Below, one piece after another: positions 24,460 through 53,816 of a DNA stretch of 64,000 bases. The DNA lies in assembly GCA_965219855.1 (NCBI GenBank), contig CBDCOR010000026.1, positions 134,372-198,371 on the forward strand. Direction: 5' to 3'. A model generated the notes under the pieces. It was not told where the DNA came from, searched no databases, and saw only the letters and a list, made by a program, of their open reading frames with translations. Positions within the stretch are counted from its first letter, which is position 1. Each line of letters begins with the position of its first letter. Source of the stretch: Acidobacteriota bacterium (GTDB taxonomy: Bacteria > Acidobacteriota > UBA6911 > RPQK01 > JAJDTT01). Both the position numbers and the translations under genes were made by a program.

Positions 24460-25211
24460 AAGAGCAGATATTGGCGGGCGATGGACAGGACCTCAGGCAT
24501 CTGAAGAGATCATGAAAACGACCTTCGACATCTTCAAAAACTATTCGTACCTGCTTCAGATGCAGAGGTAGTTGCTGTGAATGCTGCCCTATCCCATGCC
24601 AATGTTGCTTTCGAAAAGGTAGGGACTGCCCAGGGTTCCCCGTGCAACGCCCTGGTCCGAGGCAGGTCTGTCGGGGGCCACTTCAAAAGCGGCCAGGCGG
24701 GGCCGGGTCAAAAGCGGCCAGTGATTCAGTAGTTATATCCTCCGGTTCGAGTCATTTCAATCCCTTGTGAAGCCCTCCCCGCGAAGCGGGGGGAGGAGGC
24801 TTTGTTGTGTGTTCAGCCGTAGAAGCGGTGGGAACTGTGGGAAACTCCGTCCGGAGGAGTTTTCCAAGCGCTGTGGGAACGGTGGAAAAACTCGCCTCCT
24901 GGAGTCGTCTTCGCGAGGCAGCCGTTTTCCCACGGTTTCCATAGCGCGGCAGTTTCCACGGCTTTCCGGGGGTGTTGGGGGAAACTCGAGAAGCCTGGCT
25001 TCCATGGTCTCTGCTTGGTTTCAACGACACGGCTTCTTCCTGGCTTCCTTTTTTCAAAAAACATTCGCTCAGAGGCCCCTCAAGCAATGAGCTCTGCCCC
25101 ACCCTGTCCTGACCCCTCCCTCGGAGCGGGCAATCTACGAAGCCTGGGGCTGAGTCCCAGGGTCTGCGAGTAGGGGACAAGCCCGCACTCACAGCACTCG
25201 CCTCGCAGGTG

Positions 25212-25985
25212 TCATTTCTCTTTCCCTCGCTTCGGGGTGGATTTCTCTCGTTGCTGTCGCTCGTAGAGGCGATAGCTCTTGCCCCGAATGAAGGTGACTT
25301 CCGAAGTGTGCAGGAAGCGGTCCAGCAGCGCCGAGGTGGCCGCCGTATCTCCTCCCAGCATCGCGCCCCAGTCCTCCAGGGGTCGATTCGAACTGAGGAT
25401 CGTCGAGGTCTTCTGGTATCGGCGGTGCAGGATCTCCAACAGATCTTCTGCCGCCGACTCCGGCACTCTGCGGAGTCCCAGATCCTCGAGGATCAGCAGC
25501 GGGATCCGGGTCATCTCCGTAATGTAAGATCGGCGTCTGCCGGTGGCCGTGGCTTCGGCGATGTCTTCCAGCAGATCGAAAGCCGACTTGTACTGCACCC
25601 GGTGACCGGCTTCGACCGCCTTGATCCCGACGGTGATGATCAGATGGCTCTTGCCGACTCCGGTCTGACCGATGACCAACCAGCCGCGGCGCTGTTGGAT
25701 GAATCGGCCGGTAGCCAGATCGAAGATCTGCTGCCGGTTGATGGAGGGGTTAAAGGAGAAGTTAAAGTCCTCCAAGTGCTTTTGTTCCGGAAACTGGGCC
25801 TGGCGCAAACGTCGCTCCAACAGCCGGTCCCGACGGCGGGTCAGCTCGTCATCAATCAGCAGCTCAAAGAACTCCTGATGGCTGAGCCTTCCCTGGACGG
25901 CTTGTTGCAGGCGAACGTCAAAGACCTGAGCCAGGCCCGAGAGCCGGAGGTGACGAAGTTTTCGTTCCAGTTCTGATGAGATCAT
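25212..25985 (-). CDS. istB: IS21-family helper ATPase IstB
   Basis: IGQTGVGKSHL Walker A, 257 aa; overlaps istA by 4 nt. Confidence 0.85.
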   Translation of the reverse strand: MISSELERKLRHLRLSGLAQVFDVRLQQAVQGRLSHQEFFELLIDDELTRRRDRLLERRLRQAQFPEQKHLEDFNFSFNPSINRQQIFDLATGRFIQQRRGWLVIGQTGVGKSHLIITVGIKAVEAGHRVQYKSAFDLLEDIAEATATGRRRSYITEMTRIPLLILEDLGLRRVPESAAEDLLEILHRRYQKTSTILSSNRPLEDWGAMLGGDTAATSALLDRFLHTSEVTFIRGKSYRLYERQQREKSTPKRGKEK

Positions 25986-27478
25986 TCTGGTTCTCCTGTG
26001 GGATCGGTGATCTGGTACTCGGACAGCGGTCGGATCAACTCGTGCTCGGAGGTAAACAAAGAGCGCTGCGGCACGTCCAGTCGCTTACACAAAGCCACCA
26101 GAGTCCGGTAGCGGAAGGCGTCATGTGCGAGCGCCTTGCCGCAGGCTTCGTCGACGACCGAAGCGCGGTAGCGGCGGGTCAGCGAGATCATGCCCTGCAC
26201 GAGTCGGTAGGCGAGCATGTCTCGGACCTCCAGAGCTCGCTCGGCCCAGCGGTGCGCCTCTGGACCCACGGCTCGGGCTTGCTTCAGCAGATGATGCTCG
26301 GTTCGATAGTGCGCGTAGCGTTTGCGTTCCGGAAGATGGCTCGTTTCGGTTCGGAATCTCCCCGGCGGGTGCTTCGGATGCAGGGCCACCTGTTGCTCAC
26401 GAAAGAAGACGCGGACGATACGATCATCCCAGTGCACGGCGACTTCACAACCGAGCAGATGATTGGGCACCGAGTAGAACGCTCGGTCGACTTCGATGTG
26501 GCCATCGGTGGAGACCGTTCGACGGCCCACGCGGAAGAAACTGAAGCGGGAATCCGGAAGCGGTCGGAGATGCTTCTGTTCTTCGACAAAGCGGGGCCAG
26601 ACCTGCTGCTTGGTGGTGCCGTGGATGCGCTGGCGGGCGATTCGCTCGTTCCAACTCTGCAGATGCTCATTCTGCGCATCCAGGCTCTCGAAGCGGCGAG
26701 CTTTGAGCGCGCTGGAGTCGGTATATCCGATGCTTCTTTCGACTTTTCCGTTCTCGTTCGGAGCGCCCGGATGGATGGGCAGCACGGCGAAGCCGTAGTG
26801 GCGAGCGAGCGCACTGAAGACGGCATTGACCTCGGGGTCCACCAAGCAAGCCCGGGTGATCCCGGCCTTGAGGTTATCGAGGCGAACCACCTCCACGCCG
26901 CCTCCAAAAGCGTGAAAAGCCTCCTCGACACAGCGGATGAACGTCTTCAGTTCCTGCCGCCAGACGACTTCCTCATAGGAGTGGCGCGAGTGGCAGAGGA
27001 CGGCCTTGAACAGATGAGGACGGCGGTAACGACCCGATTCGGTCCGAGTCAGGGCTCCTTTGCCGAAGTCGATCTGCAGGTCCCGACCGGGGGGAGTTTC
27101 CACCCGAGCAAACACGCGAGGACTCTCCGCCTTGAGCTTTCCACAGAAGCGCTTGACGGAGTTGTAGGCTCCCCCGAATCCCTGCTCGAAGACCAGGTCC
27201 TGCCAGATCCGCTTGGCCTGCAATCCCTGCTGGAGTTTCTTTTCAATCTGCTCCCGAAAGGGCTCACAGAAGCTGCGCAGACCCGGGGGCCGCTTTGGCC
27301 GCTTTTGCTCCTCCGAGCCGGGGGCCGCTTTGGCCGGTTTTGAATCTCGGGAGGGATCATAGCGGGCAATCCTCTCTCGTCGGACTCCCACCTCTCGCTC
27401 GATCCGACGATACGACCAGCCCAGCTTCAGGAGCGCCAAAACCGTTTGCTTCTTTTCCATTTTCAATGTATTGGCCAT
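25982..27478 (-). CDS. istA: IS21-family transposase IstA (intact, 498 aa)
   Basis: N-terminal HTH (TVLALLKLGWSYRRIEREVGV) plus a DDE integrase core. The copy-B version is the same protein with an internal deletion. Confidence 0.85.
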   Translation of the reverse strand: MANTLKMEKKQTVLALLKLGWSYRRIEREVGVRRERIARYDPSRDSKPAKAAPGSEEQKRPKRPPGLRSFCEPFREQIEKKLQQGLQAKRIWQDLVFEQGFGGAYNSVKRFCGKLKAESPRVFARVETPPGRDLQIDFGKGALTRTESGRYRRPHLFKAVLCHSRHSYEEVVWRQELKTFIRCVEEAFHAFGGGVEVVRLDNLKAGITRACLVDPEVNAVFSALARHYGFAVLPIHPGAPNENGKVERSIGYTDSSALKARRFESLDAQNEHLQSWNERIARQRIHGTTKQQVWPRFVEEQKHLRPLPDSRFSFFRVGRRTVSTDGHIEVDRAFYSVPNHLLGCEVAVHWDDRIVRVFFREQQVALHPKHPPGRFRTETSHLPERKRYAHYRTEHHLLKQARAVGPEAHRWAERALEVRDMLAYRLVQGMISLTRRYRASVVDEACGKALAHDAFRYRTLVALCKRLDVPQRSLFTSEHELIRPLSEYQITDPTGEPE

Positions 27479-27574
27479 CGGCGCATCCTACGCCGGATGC
27501 GGCCCTCAATGGCTCTTGAAAATGGCCGGTTTTGAAGTGGCCCTCACTGGCCGCTTTTGGGTGGCCCCTGACAG

Positions 27575-27862
27575 CAGGTCGGACGAAATGCCCGTTACGA
27601 TCATGGTCATCTCGAGCAGCTCAGGCAGATCTCGATTCTTAAGGAGAAAGGGCTAACTTTGTCCGAGATTGCGGTCCAGTTGACTGGGGAGCGGAAAGAG
27701 CCGGCCCTTCCCCCGCCGACCAGCTGGCTTGAATTCGGAATCTCGAACGACGTCAGCGTGATAGTGCGAAGTGAGGTGGTGCCCTGGCGGATGCGAAAGA
27801 TTCGCCGGTGGTTGGCAGACAGCAGCCGATGGCTTGAGGAGCCCACGCAGAAGGAGGATTGA
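27575..27862 (+). pseudogene. 3' part of a small MerR-like HTH regulator gene split by IS21 copy A; ends 1 nt before the vWA gene
   Basis: Reading across the target-site duplication gives ...GFPVQRPGPRQVGRNARYDHGHLEQLRQISILKEKGLTLSEIAVQL. This matches the MerR pattern GLLPP.R...GYR.Y...DLERLRFI...LGFSLEEI. The first HTH helix is not recognisable upstream of the IS. Confidence 0.35.
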
Positions 27863-27863
27863 A

Positions 27864-30284
27864 ATGAACTCAACACAAAACGTGGCTCAAGCGTTTGCGG
27901 TGCAGAATGAGAAAGGTCAGGAAGTCCAATTGGTCATGCAGGAATTGAGCCTGGCTGGACACATTTTGCCAGTAGGAGCTCGAATCGCGGTGCGCCATGT
28001 CTTCCGTTCTGCCGAGGTGCAGCCTGTTGAGGCCGTATATGCGTTTGGAATGCCCCGGGACGCCGCCCTGCGGCAGTTCAGGATCGAGGGCGAAGACTTC
28101 AGCGTGCGCTCAGATCTGCACGACGTGGAGGAGGCGGCCAAGCTCTACGAAGCAGGAATTCAGGAGGGAAGACTGTCCGCCTTGGCGCGACAATATGGCG
28201 ACGGCTTGGTGAATCTGTCAATCGGAAATCTCCGGCCCGAGGAAGAAGTCTCTGTCTTTCTGGAGGTGATAGCTGGGGTCGAGGCCCACGATGACGGATA
28301 TCGCTTCCGTTTCCCCTTCAGCCTGGCTCCCAGTTATCACCGCGATGCCCGCGCAGCTGAGGCGGAGCCAGGAACGGGAGAGATCGAACTCCCGGAAGAC
28401 CGCTTCGGGGATCTCCTTTTACCCCGGTTCAGGAAGAATGGCGAAGGCCTGCATCAGATTGGCTTCGACATCACCCTCAATCAGCCGGACCCCCAAGGGG
28501 AAGTCAGCTCTCCTTCTCACACCATTCGGGTGCGTCCAGAGGGACGAGATGTAGTTCAGGTTTCACTTGCTCGGGAGAAGGACCTGCCCAACCGCGATCT
28601 AGTTGTCGATGTGAAGCACGTCAACAGGGAACCGATGGTTTTCACTGGCTTGGATGCCCAGGGTCAAGGCCAACTGGCGGCCCTGATTCCCTCAACTTGT
28701 TTTGGGACTCCTGCGCAGGATCCTGTCCGGGTTGTTTTGGTTCTCGATCGCTCTGGATCGATGGATGGAACTCCCATTCAACAGGCCAAGAAAGCGGTCG
28801 AGGCTTGTCTGGCAGCTCTTTCGCCTCGCGATATGTTTGGCATTGTGGTGTTTGACCAGGATGCCGAACAGTTCATGCCGACGTTGACCCCAGCCGACAA
28901 AGAGAACCGAAACCTGGCGTGCAAGTTTTTGAAGAAGCATCAAGCTCGCGGAGGGACAGAGCTAGAGCAGGCCCTGCGCAGCGCCGCCTCGCTCGTTGAA
29001 GGACCAGGAGGCGATCTGCTCGTAGTGACAGACGGACAGGTCTTCGAGACCGAGCCGATTCTCAAGACGGCTCGAAAAATGGGGCATCGTCTGCATGTAC
29101 TCGGGATTGGAAGCGCTAGCCAGGATCGATTTCTGTCCCTCCTGGCGAGGGAAACGGGCGGCATCAGCCGATTTCTCACAGCAAGGGAGCGAGTCGACTT
29201 GGGGGCTCTCGAACTTTTCACCGCCATCGGGAGTCCCTTGGCAGAACAGCTCACTCTCGGATCGACCGGAGCTCAGAAGGTGGACCTGGCACCGGAACCT
29301 GCAAAGGCTGTCTTCGCGGATTCTCCCGTGAATCTATGGGGTGAAACGAGCGGCCAAGGAAAGGGCGAAATAGAACTTACCTGGAAAGGCCGCCAGCCAA
29401 GTTCGATGAGTATCGACTACGAGGTCCCCGAATCAGCGGAACCGCTGGCTGAGACACTTCGTCTACTTCGTGGTGCACGCTTGCTGACTGACCTGGATGG
29501 CAAACTGGTGCCAGGTAAAGGAGCGGAGGGAAGACGCCAGGTGAAACGAATCGAAGAGCGAATCCAGAGATTGAGCGAGGAGTTCCAGCTGGCCAGCCGA
29601 CGGATGGCGCTAGTGGCTGTGGTGCGAAGAGAAGGGGACCGTGCAGGTACCCTACCCACAACTCATATCGTGCCTGTGGGGATACCTGAGGACGTAGCCT
29701 TTGATAGCTACTTTGGAACTCTCCGTGAAGGATATGTCGATCGCATGCCCATGGTGCTTAGTTCTCCAGTAGTCGCATCGGGGCTGTCATTAGACTTCAT
29801 GCTGGGCGAACCGACGTCCGAGTCACCAGCACCAAGGTTTTCGCGTATCGGGAGACTCCTGTCCTCGAGTCGCCCCCGGCACGACGAATTGGCAGAGCCA
29901 CCCCTTGAGGAAACGGAGTTCCTGTTAGAGCTGGCGACTCTGATCGAGCCGGATGGTGGGATGGCGGGAGACAACCTGACGGAACGTCTACAGCGCACTC
30001 TGTTGACCTTGCTCTGTTTCCGTGCCGAAGAAAACATCCATCGAAGCGGTATCTTCAAAAAGCATGTGGAAAGGCTGATGAATTTCATTCAGGACCTCGA
30101 TCGCGATCAGATTTCTCTTACCCTACGAAGCCGATGTGACCAGAGCCTGCGGCTTCTCGAACGACCGGATTTCGAGTGGGAGACCTGGGCAGAGGCAGCG
30201 GAGAAGCTCGCGGACAAGAAGGAATTGACAGAAGACGAACTGAAGCGACTGCTCGCTTCAGTTCTGTCGACCTATCCGGTGTAA
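27864..30284 (+). CDS. VIT-domain and von Willebrand factor A (vWA, MIDAS DxSxS) domain protein, ~807 aa
   Basis: N-terminal VIT-like region, then VRVVLVLDRSGSMDGTPIQQAKKAV...GIVVFDQDAEQF (vWA with MIDAS). A long C-terminal extension follows. No MoxR/AAA partner is adjacent. Confidence 0.7.
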   Translation: MNSTQNVAQAFAVQNEKGQEVQLVMQELSLAGHILPVGARIAVRHVFRSAEVQPVEAVYAFGMPRDAALRQFRIEGEDFSVRSDLHDVEEAAKLYEAGIQEGRLSALARQYGDGLVNLSIGNLRPEEEVSVFLEVIAGVEAHDDGYRFRFPFSLAPSYHRDARAAEAEPGTGEIELPEDRFGDLLLPRFRKNGEGLHQIGFDITLNQPDPQGEVSSPSHTIRVRPEGRDVVQVSLAREKDLPNRDLVVDVKHVNREPMVFTGLDAQGQGQLAALIPSTCFGTPAQDPVRVVLVLDRSGSMDGTPIQQAKKAVEACLAALSPRDMFGIVVFDQDAEQFMPTLTPADKENRNLACKFLKKHQARGGTELEQALRSAASLVEGPGGDLLVVTDGQVFETEPILKTARKMGHRLHVLGIGSASQDRFLSLLARETGGISRFLTARERVDLGALELFTAIGSPLAEQLTLGSTGAQKVDLAPEPAKAVFADSPVNLWGETSGQGKGEIELTWKGRQPSSMSIDYEVPESAEPLAETLRLLRGARLLTDLDGKLVPGKGAEGRRQVKRIEERIQRLSEEFQLASRRMALVAVVRREGDRAGTLPTTHIVPVGIPEDVAFDSYFGTLREGYVDRMPMVLSSPVVASGLSLDFMLGEPTSESPAPRFSRIGRLLSSSRPRHDELAEPPLEETEFLLELATLIEPDGGMAGDNLTERLQRTLLTLLCFRAEENIHRSGIFKKHVERLMNFIQDLDRDQISLTLRSRCDQSLRLLERPDFEWETWAEAAEKLADKKELTEDELKRLLASVLSTYPV

Positions 30285-30647
30285 AAGTTGAACGGGAAGG
30301 CAGTCCCTTGAATTGAACAGAGGGGGCATTGTCAAATTAAGCAGCGGTTGTCGACAATTGCCGGATCAATTCAATCTATCGAGGTCATCGTTAATCCCGC
30401 TGGGGACGAGGATGTTGACATCGTCTGCACGTTGCCCAACGCGGCAGCGTTGGTTTCCGTAGCGCCCGAGTCGCCCGAGTCTCGAGCTGCAGACGGGCGG
30501 GCCACGGTGCCGGCGTTGTCAGCGGTGGTGTTCATGGAGAGCGGATAGTTGGACCAGTCCGACAGGTCCGAGTAGCTGTGTCTTCGGACGAATCGCCGAC
30601 TCGCTGGGACGGTTTCTCGCAGTAGTTGCGTGACAGGGTACTAGTAT

Positions 30648-30720
30648 CTGTTTAGCTCCGCACCCTTTGCCCTGACCGTGGCCCTTACCATGGCCAGGGC
30701 AAGGATAGGACGCTAAACAG
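30648..30720. terminator. Long imperfect hairpin (CTGTTTAGC...GCTAAACAG with an internal GCCCTG/CAGGGC stem) between convergent vWA and yebC
   Basis: Inverted repeats read directly; likely a bidirectional terminator. Confidence 0.5.
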
Positions 30721-30744
30721 CACCGGGGGTACTCACGCGTTCTG

Positions 30745-31494
30745 TCAATTCAGGAGCGCTTCCATCTCCTTCTCGTCGATATCGAAATTCCCGTAGACGC
30801 TCTGGACGTCGTCTTGTTCTTCCAGGGCTTCCATCAATTTGAGAGTCTTTTCTGCTTGTTTGCCCTCGACAGAGATCGCATTCTGCGGAAGCATCGTCAG
30901 CTCGCCGGATTCGATTGGGATTTTGGCCTCTTCGACCTTCGACTTCACCTGATAGAAGTCCTCGTAGGAGGTGTAGATGGCCAAGCTATCGCCCTCCGTC
31001 TTGAGATCTTCAGCTCCTGCATCCAGAGCTACTTCAAGCAGGTCCTCTTCCGAGACCGATTCGGCGCTGACCGAGATGTAGCCCTTCTTCTCGAACATCC
31101 ACTGAACGCTTCCGTTCTCTGCCAGGTTGCCCCCGTTCTTCGTGAAAATGTGTCGCAGCTCTGCAACGGTCCGATTCTTGTTGTCGGTCAAGACATCCAC
31201 CAGGATCGCGATACCACCGGGTCCATAGCCTTCATAGAGAAACGGTTCGAAGTTTTGCCCCGGGAGTGCCCCTGTGCCCTTCAGGATGGCGCGTTCGATA
31301 TTGTCCAGAGGCATATTGCTGCCCTTGGCCGTCTGAACTGCGGTGCGGAGTCGGGGATTGGATTCGGTGTCGCCACCTCCGATTCGGGCTGCCACCGTGA
31401 TCTCCCGAATCAGCTTGCTGAACACTTTCCCCCTCTTGGCGTCAGTGGCTGCCTTCTTGTGTTTGATAGAGCTCCACTTGGAATGTCCTGACAT
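30745..31494 (-). CDS. yebC: YebC/PmpR family DNA-binding transcriptional regulator
   Basis: MSGHSKWSSIKHKKAATDAKRGKVFSKLIREI... is the canonical YebC start; the track start at 31599 is an over-extension. Confidence 0.85.
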   Translation of the reverse strand: MSGHSKWSSIKHKKAATDAKRGKVFSKLIREITVAARIGGGDTESNPRLRTAVQTAKGSNMPLDNIERAILKGTGALPGQNFEPFLYEGYGPGGIAILVDVLTDNKNRTVAELRHIFTKNGGNLAENGSVQWMFEKKGYISVSAESVSEEDLLEVALDAGAEDLKTEGDSLAIYTSYEDFYQVKSKVEEAKIPIESGELTMLPQNAISVEGKQAEKTLKLMEALEEQDDVQSVYGNFDIDEKEMEALLN

Positions 31495-31585
31495 AACCGT
31501 CGTCTCCGATAGTGGTTTTGGCGGGTATTGTACCATGGGAGGGACCTTCGTAAACCGCTCTGTGGTGAGGCAATAGGAGACGAAA

Positions 31586-32326
31586 GTGACGAAGTACAAA
31601 GTAGTCCTGCAGTACCTGGCTACCGGCTACGCAGGCTGGCAAGTGCAGCGAGATCGACCCACCATTGGGGGGACCATCGAATCGGTCCTGAGCCGCTTGA
31701 CTGGGGAATCACCTGCTGTCGTGGGTTCCGGGAGGACCGATGCCGGTGTCCACGCCCTGGGCCAGGTTGCCCATTTTCGGTTGGAGAAGCCCTGGTGCAG
31801 CAAACGGCTCCTGCGCAGCCTCAACGGTCTGCTACCGACGAATATCCGAGTGCTCCGGCTGGAGTCGACCTCCCCTTCCTTTCACGCTCAAAGAGACGCT
31901 GTGAAGAAGCGTTATGTTTATCGGATCTACAACGGTCCGATTCTTTCTCCCTTTCTCCATGGACGTGTGTACCAGGTCTTCCCGGCCCTGGACTTCGAGC
32001 GTATGCAGGAGGCCGCCGAATCGATTTGCGGAAGTCACGATTTCAGCGGGTTCGCCGCTTCCACTACACGAGTCAAGAATCGTACCCGAAATCTGCTGAT
32101 CTCCCGCTGGCAGCGCAAGGGCCGTGCCTTGGAGTATCAGATCGAGGCCAAGGGTTTTCTGCACCACATGGTCCGAAACATCGTGGGAACCCTGGTCCAG
32201 GTAGGTCTGGGCAAGCGACCTCCCGAGGGCATGTTGGAGATCCTCAAGGCCCGAGACCGCCGCCGGGCAGGCCCGACGGCACCGGCTGAGGGGCTCTATC
32301 TGGCAAGGGTCTGGTACTCTCGATGA
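31586..32326 (+). CDS. truA: tRNA pseudouridine(38-40) synthase
   Basis: GTG start; RTDAGVHALGQV is the catalytic Asp motif. Confidence 0.85.
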   Translation: MTKYKVVLQYLATGYAGWQVQRDRPTIGGTIESVLSRLTGESPAVVGSGRTDAGVHALGQVAHFRLEKPWCSKRLLRSLNGLLPTNIRVLRLESTSPSFHAQRDAVKKRYVYRIYNGPILSPFLHGRVYQVFPALDFERMQEAAESICGSHDFSGFAASTTRVKNRTRNLLISRWQRKGRALEYQIEAKGFLHHMVRNIVGTLVQVGLGKRPPEGMLEILKARDRRRAGPTAPAEGLYLARVWYSR

Positions 32327-32439
32327 TCCAAGCACCGCTAGATTTGGAATTTGAAATTTGGCTGTATCTTGTATCTTGTATCTTGTACCTTGTATCTTGG
32401 AATCTCGTCCTCAGCCCTGATAAGTGACGCAGCAGATGG

Positions 32440-33231
32440 ATGGTTGACCTATTCGAGAGTTTCCGCGGTGTTCTGGATCCCGAAAGCGCTGAAGCTCGCC
32501 TGATTCTTGGCCTCGACCCCCGCCGACTCCCACGCCATGTCGCCGTTATCATGGATGGGAACGGGCGTTGGGCCAACCAGCGCGGTCTGCGGCGGGTCGA
32601 AGGACATTCCGCTGGGATCAAGTCGGTCCGGGCCACGGTTGAGACCTGTGCTAGGCTCAAGCTTCCGGTTCTCACCCTTTACGCCTTTTCAGCGGAAAAC
32701 TGGAAGCGCCCGATCAGCGAGGTCAATACCCTCATGGAGCTGCTCAAGGAGTACCTCCGAAAGGAGCTCCCCGAGATCCAGGAGAACGATATCCGTTTTC
32801 TGACAATCGGTCGTGTCGATGAACTCCCTTCGTCGGTCCAACGCGAGCTGAAACACGTAGAGACCGAGACTCAATTCAATCGAGGCATGCAGATGGTTCT
32901 GGCCCTCAACTATGGAGGTCGAACCGAGCTGGTCGACGCCTTCAACGCTCTGATCAAGAAAGGGAGCCGGCGTAGGATTCGGGAGAGGGACATTGAGGAA
33001 AATCTTTACACCGCCGGTCTGCCAGAACCCGATCTGTTGATTCGTACCAGCGGGGAGATGCGAGTCAGCAATTTTTTACTCTGGCAGATCGCCTACTCCG
33101 AAATATATGTGACGGACGTATTGTGGCCGGACTTCCGTGGCGTCCATCTGCTCGAAGCCATCCTTGACTTCCAGAAGCGAGAACGCCGGTACGGAGGGAT
33201 CCTGTCCGCGCGATTCCAAAGCTCCCGATGA
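32440..33231 (+). CDS. uppS: Isoprenyl transferase (undecaprenyl diphosphate synthase)
   Basis: HVAVIMDGNGRWA...; cis-prenyltransferase signature. Confidence 0.9.
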   Translation: MVDLFESFRGVLDPESAEARLILGLDPRRLPRHVAVIMDGNGRWANQRGLRRVEGHSAGIKSVRATVETCARLKLPVLTLYAFSAENWKRPISEVNTLMELLKEYLRKELPEIQENDIRFLTIGRVDELPSSVQRELKHVETETQFNRGMQMVLALNYGGRTELVDAFNALIKKGSRRRIRERDIEENLYTAGLPEPDLLIRTSGEMRVSNFLLWQIAYSEIYVTDVLWPDFRGVHLLEAILDFQKRERRYGGILSARFQSSR

Positions 33232-34037: not shown

Positions 34038-34046
34038 CCCGTCACC

Positions 34047-43639: not shown

Positions 43640-43766
43640 TCAGAAAGCCGAGCGCCCAGAGCGCTCGAACCAACGCAGACGGATCACTCGAAATAGGATG
43701 TAGACCGAAAGGAAGACGTAAAATCCAGCGATCGATAACAAGACGGCTAAGACCGGCCAGCTACTC
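43640..43766 (-). CDS. Possible small membrane protein (42 aa); not in the ORF track
   Basis: Minus-strand ATG at 43766: MSSWPVLAVLLSIAGFYVFLSVYILFRVIRLRWFERSGRSAF. A hydrophobic helix; located upstream of the 43043-43603 gene. Confidence 0.25.
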
Positions 43767-43963
43767 ATGGGTCCTCTCGACTATCCCCTCCCCGATACCT
43801 GTTCTCTTTTCTCTATAACGGAATAGATGCATATCAAGTGCCAAAGTCGGCAAACAAAGTGCGTATTCCGGTGAAACCGGCCACCGAATCCGGAGCAAAC
43901 CGGCCGGGTCGGAGCGAAGCGACGCCGGAGGTTGATAATCATCTCCGAAGTGGCCGGTTTGAG

Positions 43964-44719: not shown

Positions 44720-45471
44720 GATTCGTCCTTTGCTTTGGTGGGAGGATGACGATGCCGGCGCATGGAAGCCCCTTCGAGCTCAATGCGGTAGGCATTATGG
44801 ACCAGACGATCCAGGATGGAATCAGCGGTGGTCGGATCTCCGATCTGCTCATGCCAATGGGCGACGGGAAGCTGGGAGGTCAGGATCGTGGATCGACTGT
44901 CGTAGCGATCCTCGCAGATCTCGTAGAAGTCCCGTCGCTCGCTCTCGGCCAAGGGATTCATGGCCCAGTCATCGACGATCAGCACGTCGGTGCGGGCGAT
45001 CTTACGCAGGAGCTTGTCGAGCGAGCCGTCGGCTCGAGCCAAAGCCAGATCGCGAAAGAGTCGAGCGGCACGAGTGTACAGAGCCGTCCACCCGTCGCGA
45101 GCGGCCTTCTGAGCAAAGGCACAGGCCAAGAAGGTTTTCCCGACTCCACAGGGACCGATGATCAGGAGATTGTGGTGGGTCTGGATCCAACGGCAGGTGG
45201 CGAGGCTGGCAATCAGCGAGCGATCCAGCCCCCGAGGTCGGCGATAGTTGACATCTTCCAGACAGGCCGAGAGCTTCAATCGGGCATTCTTCAGACGACG
45301 CTCCAAGGCCCGATTCTCTCGCCAGGTCCACTGCCGATCCACCAACAGGGCAAAGCGTTCTTCAAAGCTCAGTTGGGCCATCTCCGGGTCGGAGAGTTGC
45401 TCGGTGAAGGCCTCAGCCATGGCCCTGAGCCGCATGGCGTGAAGTTTTTCGACGGTGGGATTAACCAACAT
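44716..45471 (-). CDS. istB: IS21-family IstB helper ATPase (second element)
   Basis: IIGPCGVGKTFLACAFA is a Walker A motif; 251 aa. Confidence 0.8.
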   Translation of the reverse strand: MLVNPTVEKLHAMRLRAMAEAFTEQLSDPEMAQLSFEERFALLVDRQWTWRENRALERRLKNARLKLSACLEDVNYRRPRGLDRSLIASLATCRWIQTHHNLLIIGPCGVGKTFLACAFAQKAARDGWTALYTRAARLFRDLALARADGSLDKLLRKIARTDVLIVDDWAMNPLAESERRDFYEICEDRYDSRSTILTSQLPVAHWHEQIGDPTTADSILDRLVHNAYRIELEGASMRRHRHPPTKAKDES

Positions 45472-47032
45472 GAGAGGCTCCTTTCTCGCCTTCGAAGTAC
45501 TCGGCCCCTCGCACGTTGGCGTGCTCGATCGGAGGACGTTCCGGCAACGGTTGCGGTTCCGCTTGACGGTCCAGACCGTTCTTCAACATGGACTGGATAC
45601 TCTTGTAGGAGCAGGCCTGAAGTCGCAGGGCCCGACGGCAAGCCTGCTCCAAACGGTCTTCCCCAAAGCTGGAGCCCAGGCGCAGGATACCCAAGCAGGA
45701 GCGATAGCTTTGCTCGGGATAGCGACGGGATTGGAGGATCTTCTCGACCACCGATGCGGTATGGGGCCCGACTTTCTGAGCCCAGTGGATCAGACGCGAG
45801 GGTGACCACTCCAGATAGCGGCGATGGCATTCGGGCCGGTGCTCGTCCAAGGTCGTGGCCTTGCCCGGCTGATAGGAGCGACGGTGAGAGGTCACGCGGC
45901 GACCTTGATGGAAGATCTCCACGGTGGTGACGGTGGTGCGCAGCTCGACCTTCTGACCCACCAGGACATAAGGGACGCTGTAGTAGTGGCGGTCGAACTC
46001 GATGTGGTAATCGATGTTGACGCGGGCCTTCTTCCACTGGGCGAAGACGTAGCGTTGGGCCGGCAGGGGCCCCAGAGCCGGACGATCCAGGTCCTGGAAG
46101 CGCTGGCGGCGGTTGCCGGGGAGCTTGTGAAAGTTTCGAGTGTTGAGACGCTCCAGCAGCTCGGCAATGGCTTCGTTGAGCTCTCCCAGGGAAAAGAAGG
46201 TCCGGTGACGCAAGGCGGCCAAGATCCAGCGCTCGACGACTAACACACCCGACTCCGCCTTCGCTTTATCTCGAGGACGGCGCACTCGAGCCGGGATCAC
46301 CGCGACGCCGTAGTGCGAGGCCCAATCCGAATAGCTCGCATTGAGATCCGGTTCATAGCGACAGGGGCGATGGACCGCATCTTTGGTGTTGTCTGGAACC
46401 ACGACGCAGGGGCAACCCCCCAGGAACTCCAGAGCCCGAGTGTGGGCCGCGAGCCACGAGGGTAAGTCCTGCCTTAGGGAGGCTTCCGCATAGGTATAGT
46501 TGCTTGCCCCCAGCCCGGCCACGAAGATCGAGGCCTCTTGGGTTTCCCCCGTATGGCGATCCACGATCGGGACCGTGTCGCCGGCATAGTCCACGAAGAG
46601 CTTCTCGCCGGCCCGGTGTTCCTGCCGCAGCACCAGATCCAGCTTGCCCCGCCAGCGATGGTACAGATCGCAGAACTGACTGTACTGATAGCCCTCCGGA
46701 TACGCCTGCTTGTACTCATCCCAGAGCAGCATCAAGGTCACATGTTTGTGTCGGCAGCGCTCCTCATGGACGGTGGCGAAGTCGGGGAGGGGACGTTGCT
46801 CCGGGGGAGATTTACCCGTGGGAGGAAACACCCGGTTCTGAATCGCCCGGTCATCCCACCCCTCAGGGAGTGGCCAACTCAGACCGGCTCCTTGGGCCCG
46901 GCGCACATACTCTGCCACGGTGCTGCGCGCGAGGGCACAGCTACGGGCGATCTGCCGATCCGAAAGATGAAGCTGAAACTTCAGGCGTAGGACATTTTTG
47001 ATTTTGCGCATGGACTTCCTTTGGTTCGGCAC
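45461..47032 (-). CDS. istA: IS21-family IstA transposase (second element, 523 aa)
   Basis: N-terminal HTH plus a DDE core; only distantly related to the 498-aa IstA of copies A/B. Confidence 0.8.
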   Translation of the reverse strand: MPNQRKSMRKIKNVLRLKFQLHLSDRQIARSCALARSTVAEYVRRAQGAGLSWPLPEGWDDRAIQNRVFPPTGKSPPEQRPLPDFATVHEERCRHKHVTLMLLWDEYKQAYPEGYQYSQFCDLYHRWRGKLDLVLRQEHRAGEKLFVDYAGDTVPIVDRHTGETQEASIFVAGLGASNYTYAEASLRQDLPSWLAAHTRALEFLGGCPCVVVPDNTKDAVHRPCRYEPDLNASYSDWASHYGVAVIPARVRRPRDKAKAESGVLVVERWILAALRHRTFFSLGELNEAIAELLERLNTRNFHKLPGNRRQRFQDLDRPALGPLPAQRYVFAQWKKARVNIDYHIEFDRHYYSVPYVLVGQKVELRTTVTTVEIFHQGRRVTSHRRSYQPGKATTLDEHRPECHRRYLEWSPSRLIHWAQKVGPHTASVVEKILQSRRYPEQSYRSCLGILRLGSSFGEDRLEQACRRALRLQACSYKSIQSMLKNGLDRQAEPQPLPERPPIEHANVRGAEYFEGEKGASHVG

Positions 47033-47533
47033 GATCGCTCCTCCGAAAAGGAGTCATGGTACCGAAGGAGTCCAACGTCGCTTCCGTCCGCTCTGGAAAC
47101 CGATTCCGGGAAACCGGCCGCCTTTCCGGGAAACCGGCCACCCTTCCGGGAAATCGGCCACCCTTCCGGAAACCCCGTTTCTAGTGGCCGGTTTCCCGCC
47201 GGATTGGGTGGCCGGTTTGCTCCGGAATCAGTGGCCGGTTTGCTCCGGAATCAGTGGCCGGTTTGCTCTGGAATCACCGGCCGGTTTCGTCCGGAATACG
47301 CAAACAAAGTGGAAGGAATCCGAAATCCTGGCTCCAGTCGATCTCTGCTGTTTCGTTTTCCTCTCTCGCGAGGGGTTAAGGCGTCAGGTGAGCCGCCGGC
47401 CCGTGGTACCATTGAAGCAGGTCGGCGGCCGGAGATCTTCCAATGTGAGGACCTAGGAAGAGCGGTCTGCCCGGCTTCCCTTTTGGAATTGGTTGAAGAA
47501 GAATACCCTAGTAGCGATCGCGGTTTCTGACAG

Positions 47534-48076
47534 GTGGAGCTTCTGATGAGGACGGCTTCTCGAGTGCCAGAGCATCATCCTTTGAGAAGGCTCTTCTTGG
47601 GCCTCACTGATCGAGCCCTCACGCACACCTCCTTGAGAGACAGGGATATCCTCAAGTATCTAAGCAACCTGCTCATGTCCTTCATGTACGTAGAGAATCT
47701 CTACATGCTCAAGGACCAGAACGGGAAACGCCTCGAGTACCTGGTGGATATGTTGGAGCACGCCTCCCAGCAGGGTTCGGTGGTTGAGAGAAAGGGTTCG
47801 TACTAACAGATCGGTGACTATAGTTTGTTCGTTCTGGGCATGTTCCCGGAGAGCCTCGGTCAGGGGAGAGTAGCCCTCCCACCTTCCTACTACGCAGAAA
47901 CTGGCCGATGTAGTTACAGCGCCGCCAGTGAATTGGAGTCAGATCCGAAGACGACTGTTGTGTTCAAGAAGCTCGCGGGAAAGTTCGAGCGCTGCGTCTT
48001 GTCCTTGAACTGGGTAAAAGAGTATACCGGCGACCCCTTCTTTCAGTATATGCTGCGGCAGTTCGGTATCACCTGA
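47534..48076 (+). pseudogene. Hypothetical ~180-aa protein interrupted by a single in-frame TAA (47807-47809)
   Basis: ORFs 47534-47806 and 47825-48076 share a phase (2 mod 3) and are separated by one TAA plus 5 codons. No family recognised. Confidence 0.4.
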
Positions 48077-48330
48077 GTAATCGTCTGAACGTCTGAACGT
48101 CGCACGTTGCTGAGGAAGGCCTTTATTGATGTGAACTGCAATATTGCAAGGCCCTGTCCGGCAGAGTCGCGAACGACTTGACTTGTCAGCAAGATCAGCC
48201 CAAGTTTCGAGGAGAGAGCCGGACAACAGCAGAACCTCCCTCCTATGCCCGAGGAAAGTTTCTTTCTCGAATGGGGCCAGTGCTCCTTGACTAGGAGCCG
48301 CGAATCTTACCGAGCCGCGCGAATTCCATT

Positions 48331-49467
48331 GTGAGCGCTTCTATCAGAGATCTGACCCATCAGATCAAGGCAAAGGCCAGCGAACTGGGATTTGACGCAG
48401 TGGGTGTTGCGCCAGCGACGGTGATTCCCGAGGATCGTCTCCGGACCTGGCTGAAGAGCGGTTACCACGGCAAGATGGACTACATGACCCGTCAGGCCGA
48501 GAAGCGCTTGAATCCGGATAAAGTGCTGCCTGGAGTCCGATCGGTCCTTTGCGTCTTGCTCGACTACTACCATCCCTACGAGCTTCCCTATGACCAGCCC
48601 CACCTTGGCGTCGTCTCACGTTACGCGTCTGGAGAGGAATACCACCAGCTCATCCAGGAAAGACTGCGACAACTGTTGTTCGGCATCCGCTCTCTTCTGC
48701 CCCAGGTACAAGCCAAGCTCTACGTGGACACGGGGCCGGTCATGGATAAATACTGGGCCGCTCAGGCAGGTCTGGGTTGGCTGGGCAAACACACCAATCT
48801 GCTGGACCGGGATCGTGGCTCCTGGTTCTTCCTGGGTGAGATTCTGTTGGATGTCGAGTTGGAATACGACCAGCCCAGTTTCGATTTCTGTGGCACCTGC
48901 ACCCGCTGCATCGATGCCTGTCCCACCGACGCCATCGTCGATCCCTATGTGCTGGACGCCCGGCGCTGTATCTCTTATCTAACGATCGAGCTGCGCGACG
49001 ATATCCCGAACGAGCTCCGGGAGCCGATGAGCAACCTGGTTTTCGGCTGCGATATCTGTCAGGACGTTTGTCCCTGGAACCGGTCTGCTCCCGATTCCTC
49101 GGTTGCAGAATTCAAACCGCGTGAGCTAAATCGACAGCCAGAATTGAAGCGACTCGCCCAGATCACGCCAGAGCAGTTTCCCAAGAGATTTAGGAATAGC
49201 CCCATCAAACGGGCCAAGTGGAGAGGCTTGATGCGCAACGTCGCCGTCGCGATGGGCAATAGTAGAGATCCCAACCTGGTTCCGGAACTCAGCAAGCTTC
49301 TCGATTCGGAGGAGGCCATGGTTCGACGTCACGCCGCCTGGGCGCTGGCGCAAATCGCGACCTCGGAGGCGCTCGAGAGCATTCAAAGGCGCCTGGACCA
49401 GGAAGAAGACCGATCGACACGCGAGACTCTCGAGAGTCTGTTGGCCCCAGTCGCGCCCGGCCAGTGA
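48331..49467 (+). CDS. queG: tRNA epoxyqueuosine(34) reductase
   Basis: CGTCTRCIDACPTDAI and CDICQDVCPWN are the 4Fe-4S motifs; C-terminal HEAT-like repeats; 378 aa. Confidence 0.85.
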   Translation: MSASIRDLTHQIKAKASELGFDAVGVAPATVIPEDRLRTWLKSGYHGKMDYMTRQAEKRLNPDKVLPGVRSVLCVLLDYYHPYELPYDQPHLGVVSRYASGEEYHQLIQERLRQLLFGIRSLLPQVQAKLYVDTGPVMDKYWAAQAGLGWLGKHTNLLDRDRGSWFFLGEILLDVELEYDQPSFDFCGTCTRCIDACPTDAIVDPYVLDARRCISYLTIELRDDIPNELREPMSNLVFGCDICQDVCPWNRSAPDSSVAEFKPRELNRQPELKRLAQITPEQFPKRFRNSPIKRAKWRGLMRNVAVAMGNSRDPNLVPELSKLLDSEEAMVRRHAAWALAQIATSEALESIQRRLDQEEDRSTRETLESLLAPVAPGQ

Positions 49468-50110
49468 GCGGTGAGTAGTGAGCAGTGAGCAGTGAGTAGT
49501 GATCACTGCTGTCCGGTTAAAAGTCGAATGATATCAGGTGGTTAGCGATGCGACCTACTGGCCTTGCACGTCCCAATTCCTAAGTGGTTGAAGAATCAGG
49601 AGTTGCTAGAACGGGGTAATGCTGAAAATTGGCGTTAGCTTCTGGAGTGTTGGCGCCCTGAGCGCACGAGAACGAGGTGAATCCTGAAGGGATTCCGTAT
49701 TGCAGCCCAGGGTTTCCGAACCCTGGGTCAACGTCGTCTCCCCTTGGATTTCAACCCTGAATGGGTTGCGTACAGAAGGGCAGCGAGTGGGTCGGGGCGC
49801 AACCCTTACAGGGTTGATTAACAAGGGGTTAAATCTCTTACCCAGGGTTCGGAAACCCTGGGCTGGAATACGCAATCCCGTTGGGATTGACCTGGCTTGG
49901 TCGGACGGGACCCATTTCCCATCGTTTCCAACGCCAGGGTCGAACCGAACCCACACGAGTCGGGTAGGGGCGGCAGTCCGAGTTGAAGTCGATTCCAGTG
50001 TGCTATCCTTGTAACTAATTGATTAGACTTATGTTATCAAGATATCTGAATAGTTCAACCGGACAGTAGTGAGTAGTGATCAGTGGTCAGTGATTAGCAG
50101 TGAGCAGTTC
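49466..50110 (+). repeat. Copy 2 of the ~560-bp structured element, complete, with 10-bp terminal inverted repeats CTGTCCGGTT/AACCGGACAG and heptamer tracts on both sides
   Basis: It starts exactly at the queG stop codon. Element core 49503-50063; heptamers at 49466-49502 and 50061-50110. Internal CCCAGGGTT/AACCCTGGG hairpin pairs as in copy 1. Confidence 0.8.
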
Positions 50111-50197
50111 ACAGAAAACTTTGGGTTGCTTGCTAGCCGATGCCTCATCATTTGCCGATCGCGAAAAAACTACTCCCACTGCTCACTGTTCTACTCA

Positions 50198-50686
50198 CTA
50201 GTTCACGCGCTGGTTCGCAGCCTTGGCTTTTGCCGCTTTGGCCTGGGCAAACTTCTGCTTGAGTTCTTCGAGCTTTTCCTTATTTTCTTCCAGCGTCTTT
50301 TGGTTGATGACCTGGCCGATGAATTCTACGTGCAGAGTCCACGCCTGCTCGATCTGCAGGGTCTCAGGGTTGCGAAACCAGCACTCTTCCCAGAGGCGCT
50401 TGTTGTTGAGGTTGAGGGTGACCAGCTGCCCCGGTTGATACTCTTTCCGAGTTGGGAGTACATCCACCTCCATTAGCTCGTCGTCGGGGTCCAGGCCCTC
50501 AAGAATCACAATACGCGCGTCGGTCACCTCTTTCTCGCAAGCGGGATCGTCGTAGAAGGGAAGATCCATGTGGAGGACTCGGTAGGGGATAAAGGGTAGC
50601 TCATCGGTTTCTTCAGGCTTGGGATCAAAGCTTTCAGTGAGCGGTGCTGCCGACTTGCTCTTGAATAACTTTTTCAACTTCCCCAT
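50198..50686 (-). CDS. Hypothetical protein with a Lys/Ala-rich C-terminus
   Basis: 162 aa, no recognised domain. Its TAG stop is embedded in a degenerate CTCACTG tract (50175-50205). Confidence 0.45.
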   Translation of the reverse strand: MGKLKKLFKSKSAAPLTESFDPKPEETDELPFIPYRVLHMDLPFYDDPACEKEVTDARIVILEGLDPDDELMEVDVLPTRKEYQPGQLVTLNLNNKRLWEECWFRNPETLQIEQAWTLHVEFIGQVINQKTLEENKEKLEELKQKFAQAKAAKAKAANQRVN

Positions 50687-51038
50687 CGGAGTAACTCCTT
50701 TCGTCGTCCCTTTGGCGTGACTGGCAAGCGTGCTGCCGAAAGAAGAATCATACCAGGTAGAAGTGCTGCCTGTAACCGTATCTCCAAGCTGGTGGAAAAG
50801 GCAGATCTGCCCTCGAAATCGAGTCGCTTTCAGTGCCGAAAAAAGAGGTACTACAATCCTGTCGGATGAGGCAAGTTTCCTGCGGCTCTTCGGCTTGACC
50901 TGGGTCGGGAAAAAATGCTAGAAAGTAGCGTTTCCAAGCTAAGTGTCAGGGGCCACCCAAAAGCGGCCAGTGAGGGCCACTTCAAAACCGGCCATTTTCA
51001 AGAGCCATTGAGGGCCGCATCCGGCGTAGGATGCGCCG

Positions 51039-52428
51039 ATGGCCAATACATTGAAAATGGAAAAGAAGCAAACGGTTTTGGCGCTCCTGAAGCTGGGCTG
51101 GTCGTATCGTCGGATCGAGCGAGAGGTGGGAGTCCGACGAGAGACGATTGCCCGCTATGATCCCTCCCGAGATTCAAAACCGGCCAAAGTGGCCCCCGGC
51201 TCGGAGGAGCAAAAGCGGCCAAAGCGGCCCCCGGGTCTGCGCAGCTTCTGTGAGCCCTTTCGGGAGCAGATTGAAAAGAAACTCCAGCAGGGATTGCAGG
51301 CCAAGCGGATCTGGCAGGACCTGGTCTTCGAGCAGGGATTCGGGGGAGCCTACAACTCCGTCAAGCGCTTCTGTGGAAAGCTCAAGGCGGAGAGTCCTCG
51401 CGTGTTTGCTCGGGTGGAAACTCCCCCCGGTCGGGACCTGCAGATCGACTTCGGCAAAGGAGCCCTGACTCGGACCGAATCGGGTCGTTACCGCCGTCCT
51501 CATCTGAGGCGGCGTGGAGGTGGTTCGCCTCGATAACCTCAAGGCCGGGATCACCCGGGCTTGCTTGGTGGACCCCGAGGTCAATGCCGTCTTCAGTGCG
51601 CTCGCTCGCCACTACGGCTTCGCCGTGCTGCCCATCCATCCGGGCGCTCCGAACGAGAACGGAAAAGTCGAAAGAAGCATCGGATATACCGACTCCAGCG
51701 CGCTCAAAGCTCGCCGCTTCGAGAGCCTGGATGCGCAGAATGAGCATCTGCAGAGTTGGAACGAGCGAATCGCCCGCCAGCGCATCCACGGCACCACCAA
51801 GCAGCAGGTCTGGCCCCGCTTTGTCGAAGAACAGAAGCATCTCCGACCGCTTCCGGATTCCCGCTTCAGTTTCTTCCGCGTGGGCCGTCGAACGGTCTCC
51901 ACCGATGGCCACATCGAAGTCGACCGAGCGTTCTACTCGGTGCCCAATCATCTGCTCGGTTGTGAAGTCGCCGTGCACTGGGATGATCGTATCGTCCGCG
52001 TCTTCTTTCGTGAGCAACAGGTGGCCCTGCATCCGAAGCACCCGCCGGGGAGATTCCGAACCGAAACGAGCCATCTTCCGGAACGCAAACGCTACGCGCA
52101 CTATCGAACCGAGCATCATCTGCTGAAGCAAGCCCGAGCCGTGGGTCCAGAGGCGCACCGCTGGGCCGAGCGAGCTCTGGAGGTCCGAGACATGCTCGCC
52201 TACCGACTCGTGCAGGGCATGATCTCGCTGACCCGCCGCTACCGCGCTTCGGTCGTCGACGAAGCCTGCGGCAAGGCGCTCGCACATGACGCCTTCCGCT
52301 ACCGGACTCTGGTGGCTTTGTGTAAGCGACTGGACGTGCCGCAGCGCTCTTTGTTTACCTCCGAGCACGAGTTGATCCGACCGCTGTCCGAGTACCAGAT
52401 CACCGATCCCACAGGAGAACCAGAATGA
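51039..52428 (+). pseudogene. istA: istA with ~109-bp internal deletion and frameshift (two ORFs 51039-51536 and 51514-52428)
   Basis: Compared to copy A, the segment FKAVLCHSRHSYEEVVWRQELKTFIRCVEEAFHAFGGG is missing and the frame changes after ...RRPHL. Confidence 0.85.
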
Positions 52429-53198
52429 TCTCATCAGAACTGGAACAAAAACTTCGTCACCTCCGGCTCTCGGGCCTGGCTCAGGTCTTTGACGTTCGCC
52501 TGCAACAAGCCGTCCAGGGAAGGCTCAGCCATCAGGAGTTCTTTGAGCTGCTGATTGATGACGAGCTGACCCGCCGTCGGGACCGGCTGTTGGAGCGACG
52601 TTTGCGCCAGGCCCAGTTTCCGGAACAAAAGCACTTGGAGGACTTTAACTTCTCCTTTAACCCCTCCATCAACCGGCAGCAGATCTTCGATCTGGCTACC
52701 GGCCGATTCATCCAACAGCGCCGCGGCTGGTTGGTCATCGGTCAGACCGGAGTCGGCAAGAGCCATCTGATCATCACCGTCGGGATCAAGGCGGTCGAAG
52801 CCGGTCACCGGGTGCAGTACAAGTCGGCTTTCGATCTGCTGGAAGACATCGCCGAAGCCACGGCCACCGGCAGACGCCGATCTTACATTACGGAGATGAC
52901 CCGGATCCCGCTGCTGATCCTCGAGGATCTGGGACTCCGCAGAGTGCCGGAGTCGGCGGCAGAAGATCTGTTGGAGATCCTGCACCGCCGATACCAGAAG
53001 ACCTCGACGATCCTCAGTTCGAATCGACCCCTGGAGGACTGGGGCGCGATGCTGGGAGGAGATACGGCGGCCACCTCGGCGCTGCTGGACCGCTTCCTGC
53101 ACACTTCGGAAGTCACCTTCATTCGGGGCAAGAGCTATCGCCTCTACGAGCGACAGCAACGAGAGAAATCCACCCCGAAGCGAGGGAAAGAGAAATGA
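52425..53198 (+). CDS. istB: IS21-family IstB (copy B)
   Basis: Identical to the copy A IstB except for a single Q/R substitution near the N-terminus (MISSELEQKLR... vs MISSELERKLR...). Confidence 0.85.
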   Translation: MISSELEQKLRHLRLSGLAQVFDVRLQQAVQGRLSHQEFFELLIDDELTRRRDRLLERRLRQAQFPEQKHLEDFNFSFNPSINRQQIFDLATGRFIQQRRGWLVIGQTGVGKSHLIITVGIKAVEAGHRVQYKSAFDLLEDIAEATATGRRRSYITEMTRIPLLILEDLGLRRVPESAAEDLLEILHRRYQKTSTILSSNRPLEDWGAMLGGDTAATSALLDRFLHTSEVTFIRGKSYRLYERQQREKSTPKRGKEK

Positions 53199-53816
53199 CA
53201 CCTGCGAGGCGAGTGCTGTGAGTGCGGGCTTGTCCCCTACTCGCAGACCCTGGGACTCAGCCCCAGGCTTCGTAGATTGCCCGCTCCGAGGGAGGGGTCA
53301 GGACAGGGTGGGGCAGAGCTCATTGCTTGAGGGGCCTCTGAGCGAATGTTTTTTGAAAAAAGGAAGCCAGGAAGAAGCCGTGTCGTTGAAACCAAGCAGA
53401 GACCATGGAAGCCAGGCTTCTCGAGTTTCCCCCAACACCCCCGGAAAGCCGTGGAAACTGCCGCGCTATGGAAACCGTGGGAAAACGGCTGCCTCGCGAA
53501 GACGACTCCAGGAGGCGAGTTTTTCCACCGTTCCCACGGCGCTTGGAAAACTCCTCCGGACGGAGTTTCCCACAGTTCCCACCGCTTCTACGGCTGAACA
53601 CACAACAAAGCCTCCTCCCCCCGCTTCGCGGGGAGGGCTTCACAAGGGATTGAAATGACTCGAACCGGAGGATATAACTACTGAATCACTGGCCGCTTTT
53701 GAAGTGGCCCCCGACACTAAGTACACTGGAACGTATTTACGTTCCAGTGTACTAAGGAGAAATAGAGGTAAGGGTCTCGAAGCATCAAGCTCAGGATAGA
53801 ACTCGAGGATAGTGGA

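Follow-up and report, generated by a model that had tools for sequence, protein, structure and literature searches.

The locus considered here raises the question of how two nearly identical copies of one insertion sequence (IS) came to stand in inverted orientation around 23.4 kb of chromosome, with the second copy lying directly ahead of the genes atpHAGDC. It is contained in a 64,000-nucleotide stretch from an Acidobacteriota bacterium (contig CBDCOR010000026.1, positions 134,372 to 198,371; hereafter the window, in whose own numbering the positions below are given), and such an arrangement could reflect movement of the whole block as a composite transposon, inversion of the segment between the copies, or the splitting of an atp operon by insertion. 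The reading that we consider very probable is that the two copies, A and B, are independent simple insertions of a single, previously undescribed IS21-family element, that B is a derivative belonging to a lineage with an internal deletion, that the interval between them is in its ancestral orientation, and that the atp genes were never joined to atpBEF at this site.

Table 1. Positions in the window of the two IS copies, their parts, and the features around them.
Feature	Position	Strand	Description
Target duplication of A, GCAGGTC	24662..24668 and 27574..27580		7 bp, read at both flanks
Copy A	24669..27573	-	2905 bp, complete IS21-family element
Right end of A (IRR; R1, R2)	24669..24722	-	13-bp repeats TCAAAAGCGGCCA at 24683-24695 and 24708-24720, 25 bp apart
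Non-coding tail after istB of A	24723..25211	-	variable among relatives
istB of A	25212..25985	-	257-aa AAA+ helper; PF01695 (IstB_IS21), E 1.8e-62, full length
istA of A	25982..27478	-	intact, 498 aa; DDE motifs LQIDFG (from residue 134), RLDNLK (199), GKVERS (244)
107-bp istA segment, present in A, absent from B	26905..27011	-	IstA residues about 157-192
Left end of A (IRL; L1, L2)	27515..27573	-	two direct repeats, 25 bp apart
Interval between A and B	27574..50943		23,370 bp
merR-family gene, 3' part	27575..27862	+	from about codon 37; small gene broken by copy A
IS-C, third IS21-family element	43860..47302	-	3443 bp, unrelated to A and B, absent from relatives
Promoter-like block	50895..50924	+	TTGACC, 18 nt ending TGC, TAGAAA; near-invariant in six relatives and the window
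Target duplication of B, CTAAG	50939..50943 and 53717..53721		5 bp, read at both flanks
Copy B	50944..53716	+	2773 bp, defective derivative (107 bp of istA and 25 bp with R2 gone)
istA N-terminal fragment of B	51039..51536	+	165 aa, HTH domains then frameshifted tail; deletion junction 51505/51506
istA C-terminal remnant ORF of B	51514..52428	+	304 aa, without the first catalytic Asp
istB of B	52425..53198	+	intact; single substitution R8Q relative to A
Right end of B	53687..53716	+	R1 only; R2 gone via a 25-bp deletion between 13-bp direct repeats
Perfect 30-bp palindrome, TACACTGGAACGT-ATTT-ACGTTCCAGTGTA	53722..53751		directly abuts B; third CTAAG at 53752-53756
atpH-atpA-atpG-atpD-atpC	53817..58705	+	begins 100 bp after B

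The two copies have the same 5'-TGTC...GACA-3' termini, and when aligned along their whole length they are inverted repeats of about 99.9% identity, differing by four single-nucleotide changes and by gaps of 107 bp and 25 bp, both in B. A repeat search of the region from 23.0 to 55.5 kb finds the same relationship as two pairs of arms, 24699-26904 with 51506-53711 (2206 nt) and 27011-27573 with 50944-51506 (563 nt), each 100% complementary after rounding; an apparent 3-nt substitution beside the 25-bp gap is an alignment artefact caused by a deletion between two 13-bp direct repeats, TGGCCGCTTTTGA. The IstA protein of A matches the Pfam families rve, rve_3 and Mu-transpos_C_2 and, over residues 17-365, the IS5376 IstA structures 8b4h and 8q4d (E about 3e-24, best 2.7e-24), and the istB start overlaps the istA stop by 4 nt. 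Each terminal repeat of A is composed of GC-rich boxes separated by an AT-rich spacer. Both genes of copy A, for the IstA DDE transposase and for IstB, are intact and its two ends have two direct repeats each, so that the copy looks autonomous. The assignment of both copies to the IS21 family follows from the IstA domains, the adjacent istB, the TG...CA ends with direct repeats and target duplications of 4-8 bp, with B having L1 and L2 but only R1, and the element is a new member of that family. The initial annotation had described two inverted IS21-family copies with common termini and common IstA and IstB sequences, and had proposed aligning them base by base; the repeat search, the alignment, the Pfam matches and the IS5376 structure match all agree with that description, and the elements had been placed correctly apart from three ends that were off by one base.

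Both copies are flanked by target duplications of their own, of which only the perfect GCAGGTC heptamer at A had been recorded before. Duplications at 24 other copies of the element (22 relatives at 83-86% identity together with two metagenome copies, L028 and L029) are 4-8 bp long with a mode of 7, and the 7 bp at A and 5 bp at B are therefore normal for it. The outer flanks of the unit formed by A, the interval and B differ from each other (GCAGGTC vs CTAAG), which, together with the separate duplication at each IS, argues that A and B inserted independently without composite movement, and excludes an odd number of inversions through the pair. At A the insertion interrupts a small merR-like gene: homologues of the merR family align across the rebuilt junction for 5-6 residues, and one alignment extends 32 residues. 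Because these alignments cross the junction into the left flank, we take A to be a simple insertion into this gene; a merR N-terminus was not detected by Pfam in A's left flank.

Comparison with related loci gives the same picture for the orientation of the interval. Nucleotide alignments with L031 and L033 follow the window without a change of order or strand between 36.2 kb and 64 kb. The breaks in them that involve an IS coincide exactly with 43861/47300, where the third IS lies, and with 50943/53752, which corresponds to B plus 35 bp; the other gaps are an insertion of about 577 bp resembling a miniature inverted-repeat transposable element (MITE), at 49498-50074, and a few shorter unaligned stretches. 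In six relatives with AtpH proteins 88-93% identical to that of the window, the genes run rseP-acnA-...-queG-(a 162-164-aa gene on the minus strand)-atpHAGDC, with order and strand as in the window, and the B site is empty, reading ...GTTTCCAAG up to the insertion point and continuing directly with CTGAGGAG.... GC skew is positive throughout both IS boundaries with no change of sign, which lends weak support. We conclude that no inversion has been fixed between A and B, as the initial annotation had argued from the duplication at A, and the intact duplications at both copies and the collinear IS-free relatives now support that argument. Inversions between inverted IS copies are common in IS-rich genomes, and with 2.8-kb inverted repeats of about 99.9% identity the pair is, as also suggested earlier, a plausible substrate for RecA-mediated homologous inversion.

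The related genome CBDDCF01 provides a separate observation on rearrangement. Seven or eight of the 21 IS copies examined there lack target duplications, the right flank of L014 is the reverse complement of the left flank of L015, and L021 has the right flank of L015, a pattern that suggests an IS-mediated inversion or a rearrangement polymorphism in the population.

The 107 bp that copy B lacks in istA lie between the first (LQIDFG) and second (RLDNLK) catalytic Asp residues. Over positions 1-2362, A aligns collinearly, with no gap at this segment, to 21 relatives of 83-86% nucleotide identity (the related copies, L001-L021, L024 and L025, belong to two metagenome-assembled genomes of Acidobacteriota). 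A protein search gave hundreds of IstA homologues, about 498 aa long, that span the region, and the IS5376 IstA aligns through it. Because the relatives, the homologues and the IS5376 IstA all carry the segment, the difference is a deletion in B and the segment ancestral. The initial annotation had reported a loss of about 109 bp with a frameshift in B's istA, while naming an insertion in A as the alternative that other copies should decide; the deletion and the frameshift stand, its size is corrected to 107 bp, and the comparison with the 21 relatives and the IS5376 IstA speaks for a deletion in B.

The same deletion occurs elsewhere. A look-up with A's IstB identified a metagenome contig, L028, with a 99.9%-identical element that has exactly the same 563/670 junction, and a look-up with B's 165-aa fragment identified two more elements with this junction, L037 and L038. 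All three are 99.6-99.9% identical, are 2798 bp long (2905 - 107) and have a complete right end, and they lie in unrelated flanks with target duplications of their own (GAAA, TAGTTGCC and GGTAGTAG); the L037 copy (3906-6703) is nested inside another transposase gene, of the DDE_Tnp_ISAZ013 family. Because three other loci thus carry this one deletion, each copy with a target duplication of its own, B probably arrived already carrying it and did not acquire it in place. We infer that intact copies supplied the transposase that moved the deleted form, which would be a non-autonomous derivative; the presence of 99.9%-identical copies at several loci with different duplications is indirect evidence that the element transposes. 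B is not a direct derivative of A: its IstA has T36 and V51, the family consensus, where that of A has R36 and A51. A scan of genome contigs yielded the relatives at 83-86% and no identical copy of A or B, and exact-sequence look-ups with the window's IstA, AtpH, Dxr and AtpA gave no match. Another internally deleted variant of the same IS, L029 (3826-6317), lacks positions 44-456 and has a 7-bp duplication.

B also has a second defect, the loss of R2, which it alone shows among the four copies with the 107-bp deletion; a similar loss of the R2 type has arisen independently in the 86%-related copy L019. The architecture of L1/L2 and R1/R2 ends is known for IS21 and IS5376 (PMC10122671), and integration of IS5376 requires two complete repeats per end for IstA, with the non-catalytic subunits binding R2 (PMC10122671). 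By analogy with IS5376, B would be immobile even if transposase were supplied in trans, and it offers a natural case of R2 loss for comparison with the structural work on IS5376, which predicts that R2 is required for transposition.

We turn to the atp genes. In the six IS-free relatives the divergent 162-164-aa gene is followed by about 310 bp and then by atpH, and no ATP-synt_A, ATP-synt_B or ATP-synt_C genes were found within 10 kb on either side of atpH; an atpE probe gave no match, whether in the window or in the loci fetched. Because these relatives also start at atpH without atpBEF upstream, the operon was not split at the IS, contrary to what the initial annotation had proposed, and a separate atpHAGDC cluster is the ancestral state of the lineage.

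The position of B relative to the atp genes is nevertheless a point of modest interest, as a 2.8-kb element in the leader of an essential operon. A promoter-like block, near-invariant across the relatives and the window, ends 19 bp upstream of the B insertion point, and we regard it as a putative promoter native to atpH, one that has an extended -10 element; B, which is oriented like the operon, would then probably lie in the atp leader. A strict sigma-70 scan did not call this plus-strand block, the -10 hexamer of which lacks the final T, and found only the minus-strand site of the 162-aa gene. If the promoter reading is right, atp expression would need either read-through of 2.8 kb of dead IS or a new promoter. 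The conserved promoter-like site of the divergent 162-aa gene (50747-50776, minus strand; GTTACA-18-TATGAT with an upstream TG) shares its intergenic region with the putative atpH promoter. Searches against Rfam gave no match in the IS tail or the atp leader; the sole Rfam match in the window that reaches the gathering score is a tRNA gene at 58868-58938, directly downstream of atpC.

The right side of B carries a further insertion that is absent from the relatives' empty sites, 35 bp made up of the perfect 30-bp palindrome and a third CTAAG. As RNA the palindrome would form a 15-bp hairpin, including two flanking bases, with no U-tract. Across the IS end and the palindrome there is a weak candidate for a hybrid promoter, in which TTGAAG of the IS end is separated by a 17-nt spacer from the palindrome's TACACT. 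A shorter palindrome, TACACTGGAATTCCAGTGCA, with flanking CTTAG repeats is present at 21979-22012, and the two (53717-53756 and 21979-22012), perfect or near-perfect, have a common core, TACACTGGAA...TTCCAGTGTA, and lie within 5-bp direct repeats, CTAAG and CTTAG respectively. Both look like remnants of a CTWAG-targeting element. No parent element was found and no other copy of the 30-bp palindrome is present in the fetched loci, and a metagenome scan for it gave only unrelated chance hairpins. The IS5-like elements of the relatives were considered as a source and set aside, their ends being different, as was an apparent match after acnA in the relatives, which has no partner arm. Speculatively, if the IS came first, its duplication would have provided a second CTAAG as target, which would explain the shared pentamer.

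These observations suggest the following history. Copy A would have inserted at about codon 37 of the small merR-like gene, making its 7-bp duplication, while a deletion lineage lacking 107 bp of the istA core may have spread to several loci with transposase from intact copies. A member of this lineage, B, would have inserted with a 5-bp duplication into the atpHAGDC leader, 19 bp downstream of the promoter-like block and in operon orientation, and B would afterwards have lost R2 by slippage between the 13-bp direct repeats. What A and B enclose, 23.4 kb in all, is ancestral chromosome in its ancestral orientation.

Several other readings need to be weighed against two independent insertions. 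It is hardly credible that A, the interval and B constitute a present or former 29-kb composite transposon that moves as a block: two copies of one IS do bracket the segment, and the IS5376 IstA can use two right ends in vitro, as the outer ends here both are, but no single duplication surrounds the unit, its outer flanks lack a common duplication, R2 is absent at B's outer end, and the would-be passenger, in its part from 36.2 kb (rseP) onwards, has the order found in IS-free relatives and runs on into atpHAGDC. The initial annotation had likewise held that this is not a mobile composite transposon, and an interval of ancestral chromosome with separate duplications for each IS bears that out. 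The window comes from a metagenome-assembled genome, and an assembly artefact would make the IS copies chimeric joins or the segment a mis-oriented one. Repeats of 2.8 kb are classic break points, and in a short-read assembly of the same organism a 4.4-kb contig (L036) breaks at A's end; both copies nonetheless have matching duplications on two sides, gene order and strand agree with six independent relatives, and we give this explanation an extremely small chance.

Two further alternatives concern the origin of B. The deletion might have arisen in place after B inserted, with the IS or a linked rearrangement parting atpHAGDC from atpBEF, and B is indeed the sole deleted copy in the window, with no atpBEF upstream of atpH; however, three other loci show this junction, each copy beside an independent duplication, B's own 5-bp duplication is intact, and in the six relatives that lack the IS the gene ahead of atpH is the same as here and no F0 genes are close by, all of which makes this history very unlikely. 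Alternatively, the deletion could have spread among resident copies by gene conversion, which would suit the 99.9% identity of the copies and the finding that the polymorphisms at IstA residues 36 and 51 occur among them in all four combinations, suggesting exchange. Conversion would, however, require the same deletion to be copied into at least four separately inserted full-length copies, and trans-mobilisation of a derivative with intact ends, as the three metagenome copies have, is the simpler account; we consider conversion quite unlikely.

Some points weigh against the reading that we prefer, in which A and B are independent insertions and B derives from a mobile deletion lineage. No IS-free allele of site A was retrieved: in the left part of the interval the gene with a vault protein inter-alpha-trypsin and von Willebrand factor A domain (VIT/VWA) has no close orthologue among the relatives (the next best is at 70%), and no empty A site was obtained. 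The duplications would look no different had the segment inverted an even number of times. The metagenome contigs with the other deleted copies are not tied to the same species as the window, and gene conversion between copies could have spread the deletion in place of transposition. The effect of R2 loss is extrapolated from IS5376, whose IstA matches weakly (E about 3e-24), and the promoter assignment draws on conservation and a weak consensus match only. Lastly, the IstA of A has R36 where most relatives and IS5376 have Thr, adjacent to DNA-contacting residues, and the activity of A is therefore not certain; R36 is also present in a 38-member cluster.

Beyond the independent-insertion reading itself, a more speculative extension may be considered, although we think it on balance unlikely to be right. 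The form with the 107-bp deletion may propagate itself as a non-autonomous IS21 derivative, its 165-aa IstA fragment with HTH domains only could compete for the terminal repeats and so damp transposition, and B may in addition have become a domesticated part of the atpHAGDC leader. In that case a transcript begun at the conserved native promoter would pass through the dead IS, which has the orientation of the operon, and the 35-bp palindrome insertion may help to restore expression via the weak outward hybrid promoter. If atp expression relies on such read-through, selection would act against an inversion between A and B, by which operon and promoter would be parted.

The element resembles IS21 (from plasmid R68.45) and IS5376 (from Geobacillus stearothermophilus) in having istA, encoding an HTH-HTH-DDE-beta-barrel protein, followed by an overlapping istB for an AAA+ helper, in its TG...CA termini and short target duplications, and in the two direct repeats per end with GC-rich boxes and an AT-rich spacer. 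It departs from them in several respects: its IstA matches that of IS5376 weakly and reaches no more than about 38% identity with annotated IstA proteins of plasmids, its repeats are spaced by 25 bp compared to 23 bp, its duplications are 4-8 bp (mode 7) whereas those of IS5376 are fixed at 5 bp, and istB is followed by about 490 bp of non-coding tail, which is unusually long. The deleted form is like trans-mobilised non-autonomous IS derivatives, whether MITE-like or internally deleted, in keeping both ends and occupying several loci with separate duplications, but unlike them it has lost just 107 bp, still has its istB intact and may express an IstA fragment made up of the HTH domains only, and its mobilisation in trans is inferred. 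The pair as a whole is like IS-flanked invertible segments in having two inverted 2.8-kb repeats of about 99.9% identity around 23 kb, and unlike segments that have inverted in that both duplications are intact and the order is that of the IS-free relatives.

Overall the arrangement is an ordinary one for an IS-rich genome, two independent insertions of which one is a doubly defective derivative, and the main value of the analysis lies in correction: the atp cluster is naturally separate in this lineage, the segment uninverted, and the pair not a composite transposon. It also brings to light a lineage of the IS21 family that is undescribed and apparently very active in Acidobacteriota-like metagenome genomes, and a natural example of an internally deleted IS21 derivative at several independent sites.

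The tail of the element is a variable non-coding region. About 242 bp directly after istB (24964-25205; IS positions 2363-2604) are present in A, B and the 99.9%-identical copies and are absent from the relatives at 83-86%, which have a different segment of about 100 bp further along the tail. A 146-aa ORF in this tail (24752-25192) was considered as a passenger gene and discarded, having no family match and lying in a region that is not conserved in relatives; antisense ORFs in the tail likewise gave no family match in Pfam.

The interval between the copies contains the merR-like fragment, the VIT/VWA gene, yebC, truA, uppS, cdsA, dxr, rseP, acnA, an M28/PDZ peptidase gene, IS-C, queG, the MITE-like repeat and the 162-aa gene, together with several hypothetical genes. 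The essential genes listed in the initial annotation are thus all there, but its description of the interval as one of essential genes leaves out an unrelated 3.4-kb IS, the MITE-like repeat, the VIT/VWA gene and the disrupted merR-like gene. The 3.4-kb IS, IS-C, had not been noticed earlier; it encodes an IstA of 523 aa and an IstB of 251 aa, is flanked by a 7-bp duplication (AACAAAG), and has about nine 23-nt repeats at its left end and an 850-bp tail after istB. The MITE-like repeat is non-coding, and its copy after queG (about 577 bp, at 49498-50074) is embedded in a series of AGTGAGC heptads and has no counterpart in the relatives; it has terminal inverted repeats of about 15 bp (CACTRCTGTCCGGTT) and a large internal inverted repeat at 49675-49893, and a second copy, 84% identical, is located at 12881-13344.

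To the left of copy A, an M20 peptidase gene at 23896-24459 has only the N-terminal approximately 186 of about 500 residues and is followed by 209 bp of unassigned sequence before the IS, and upstream of it an M24 peptidase ORF (22934-23758) matches only the C-terminal part of the family models; this M24/M20 region may be a decayed one.

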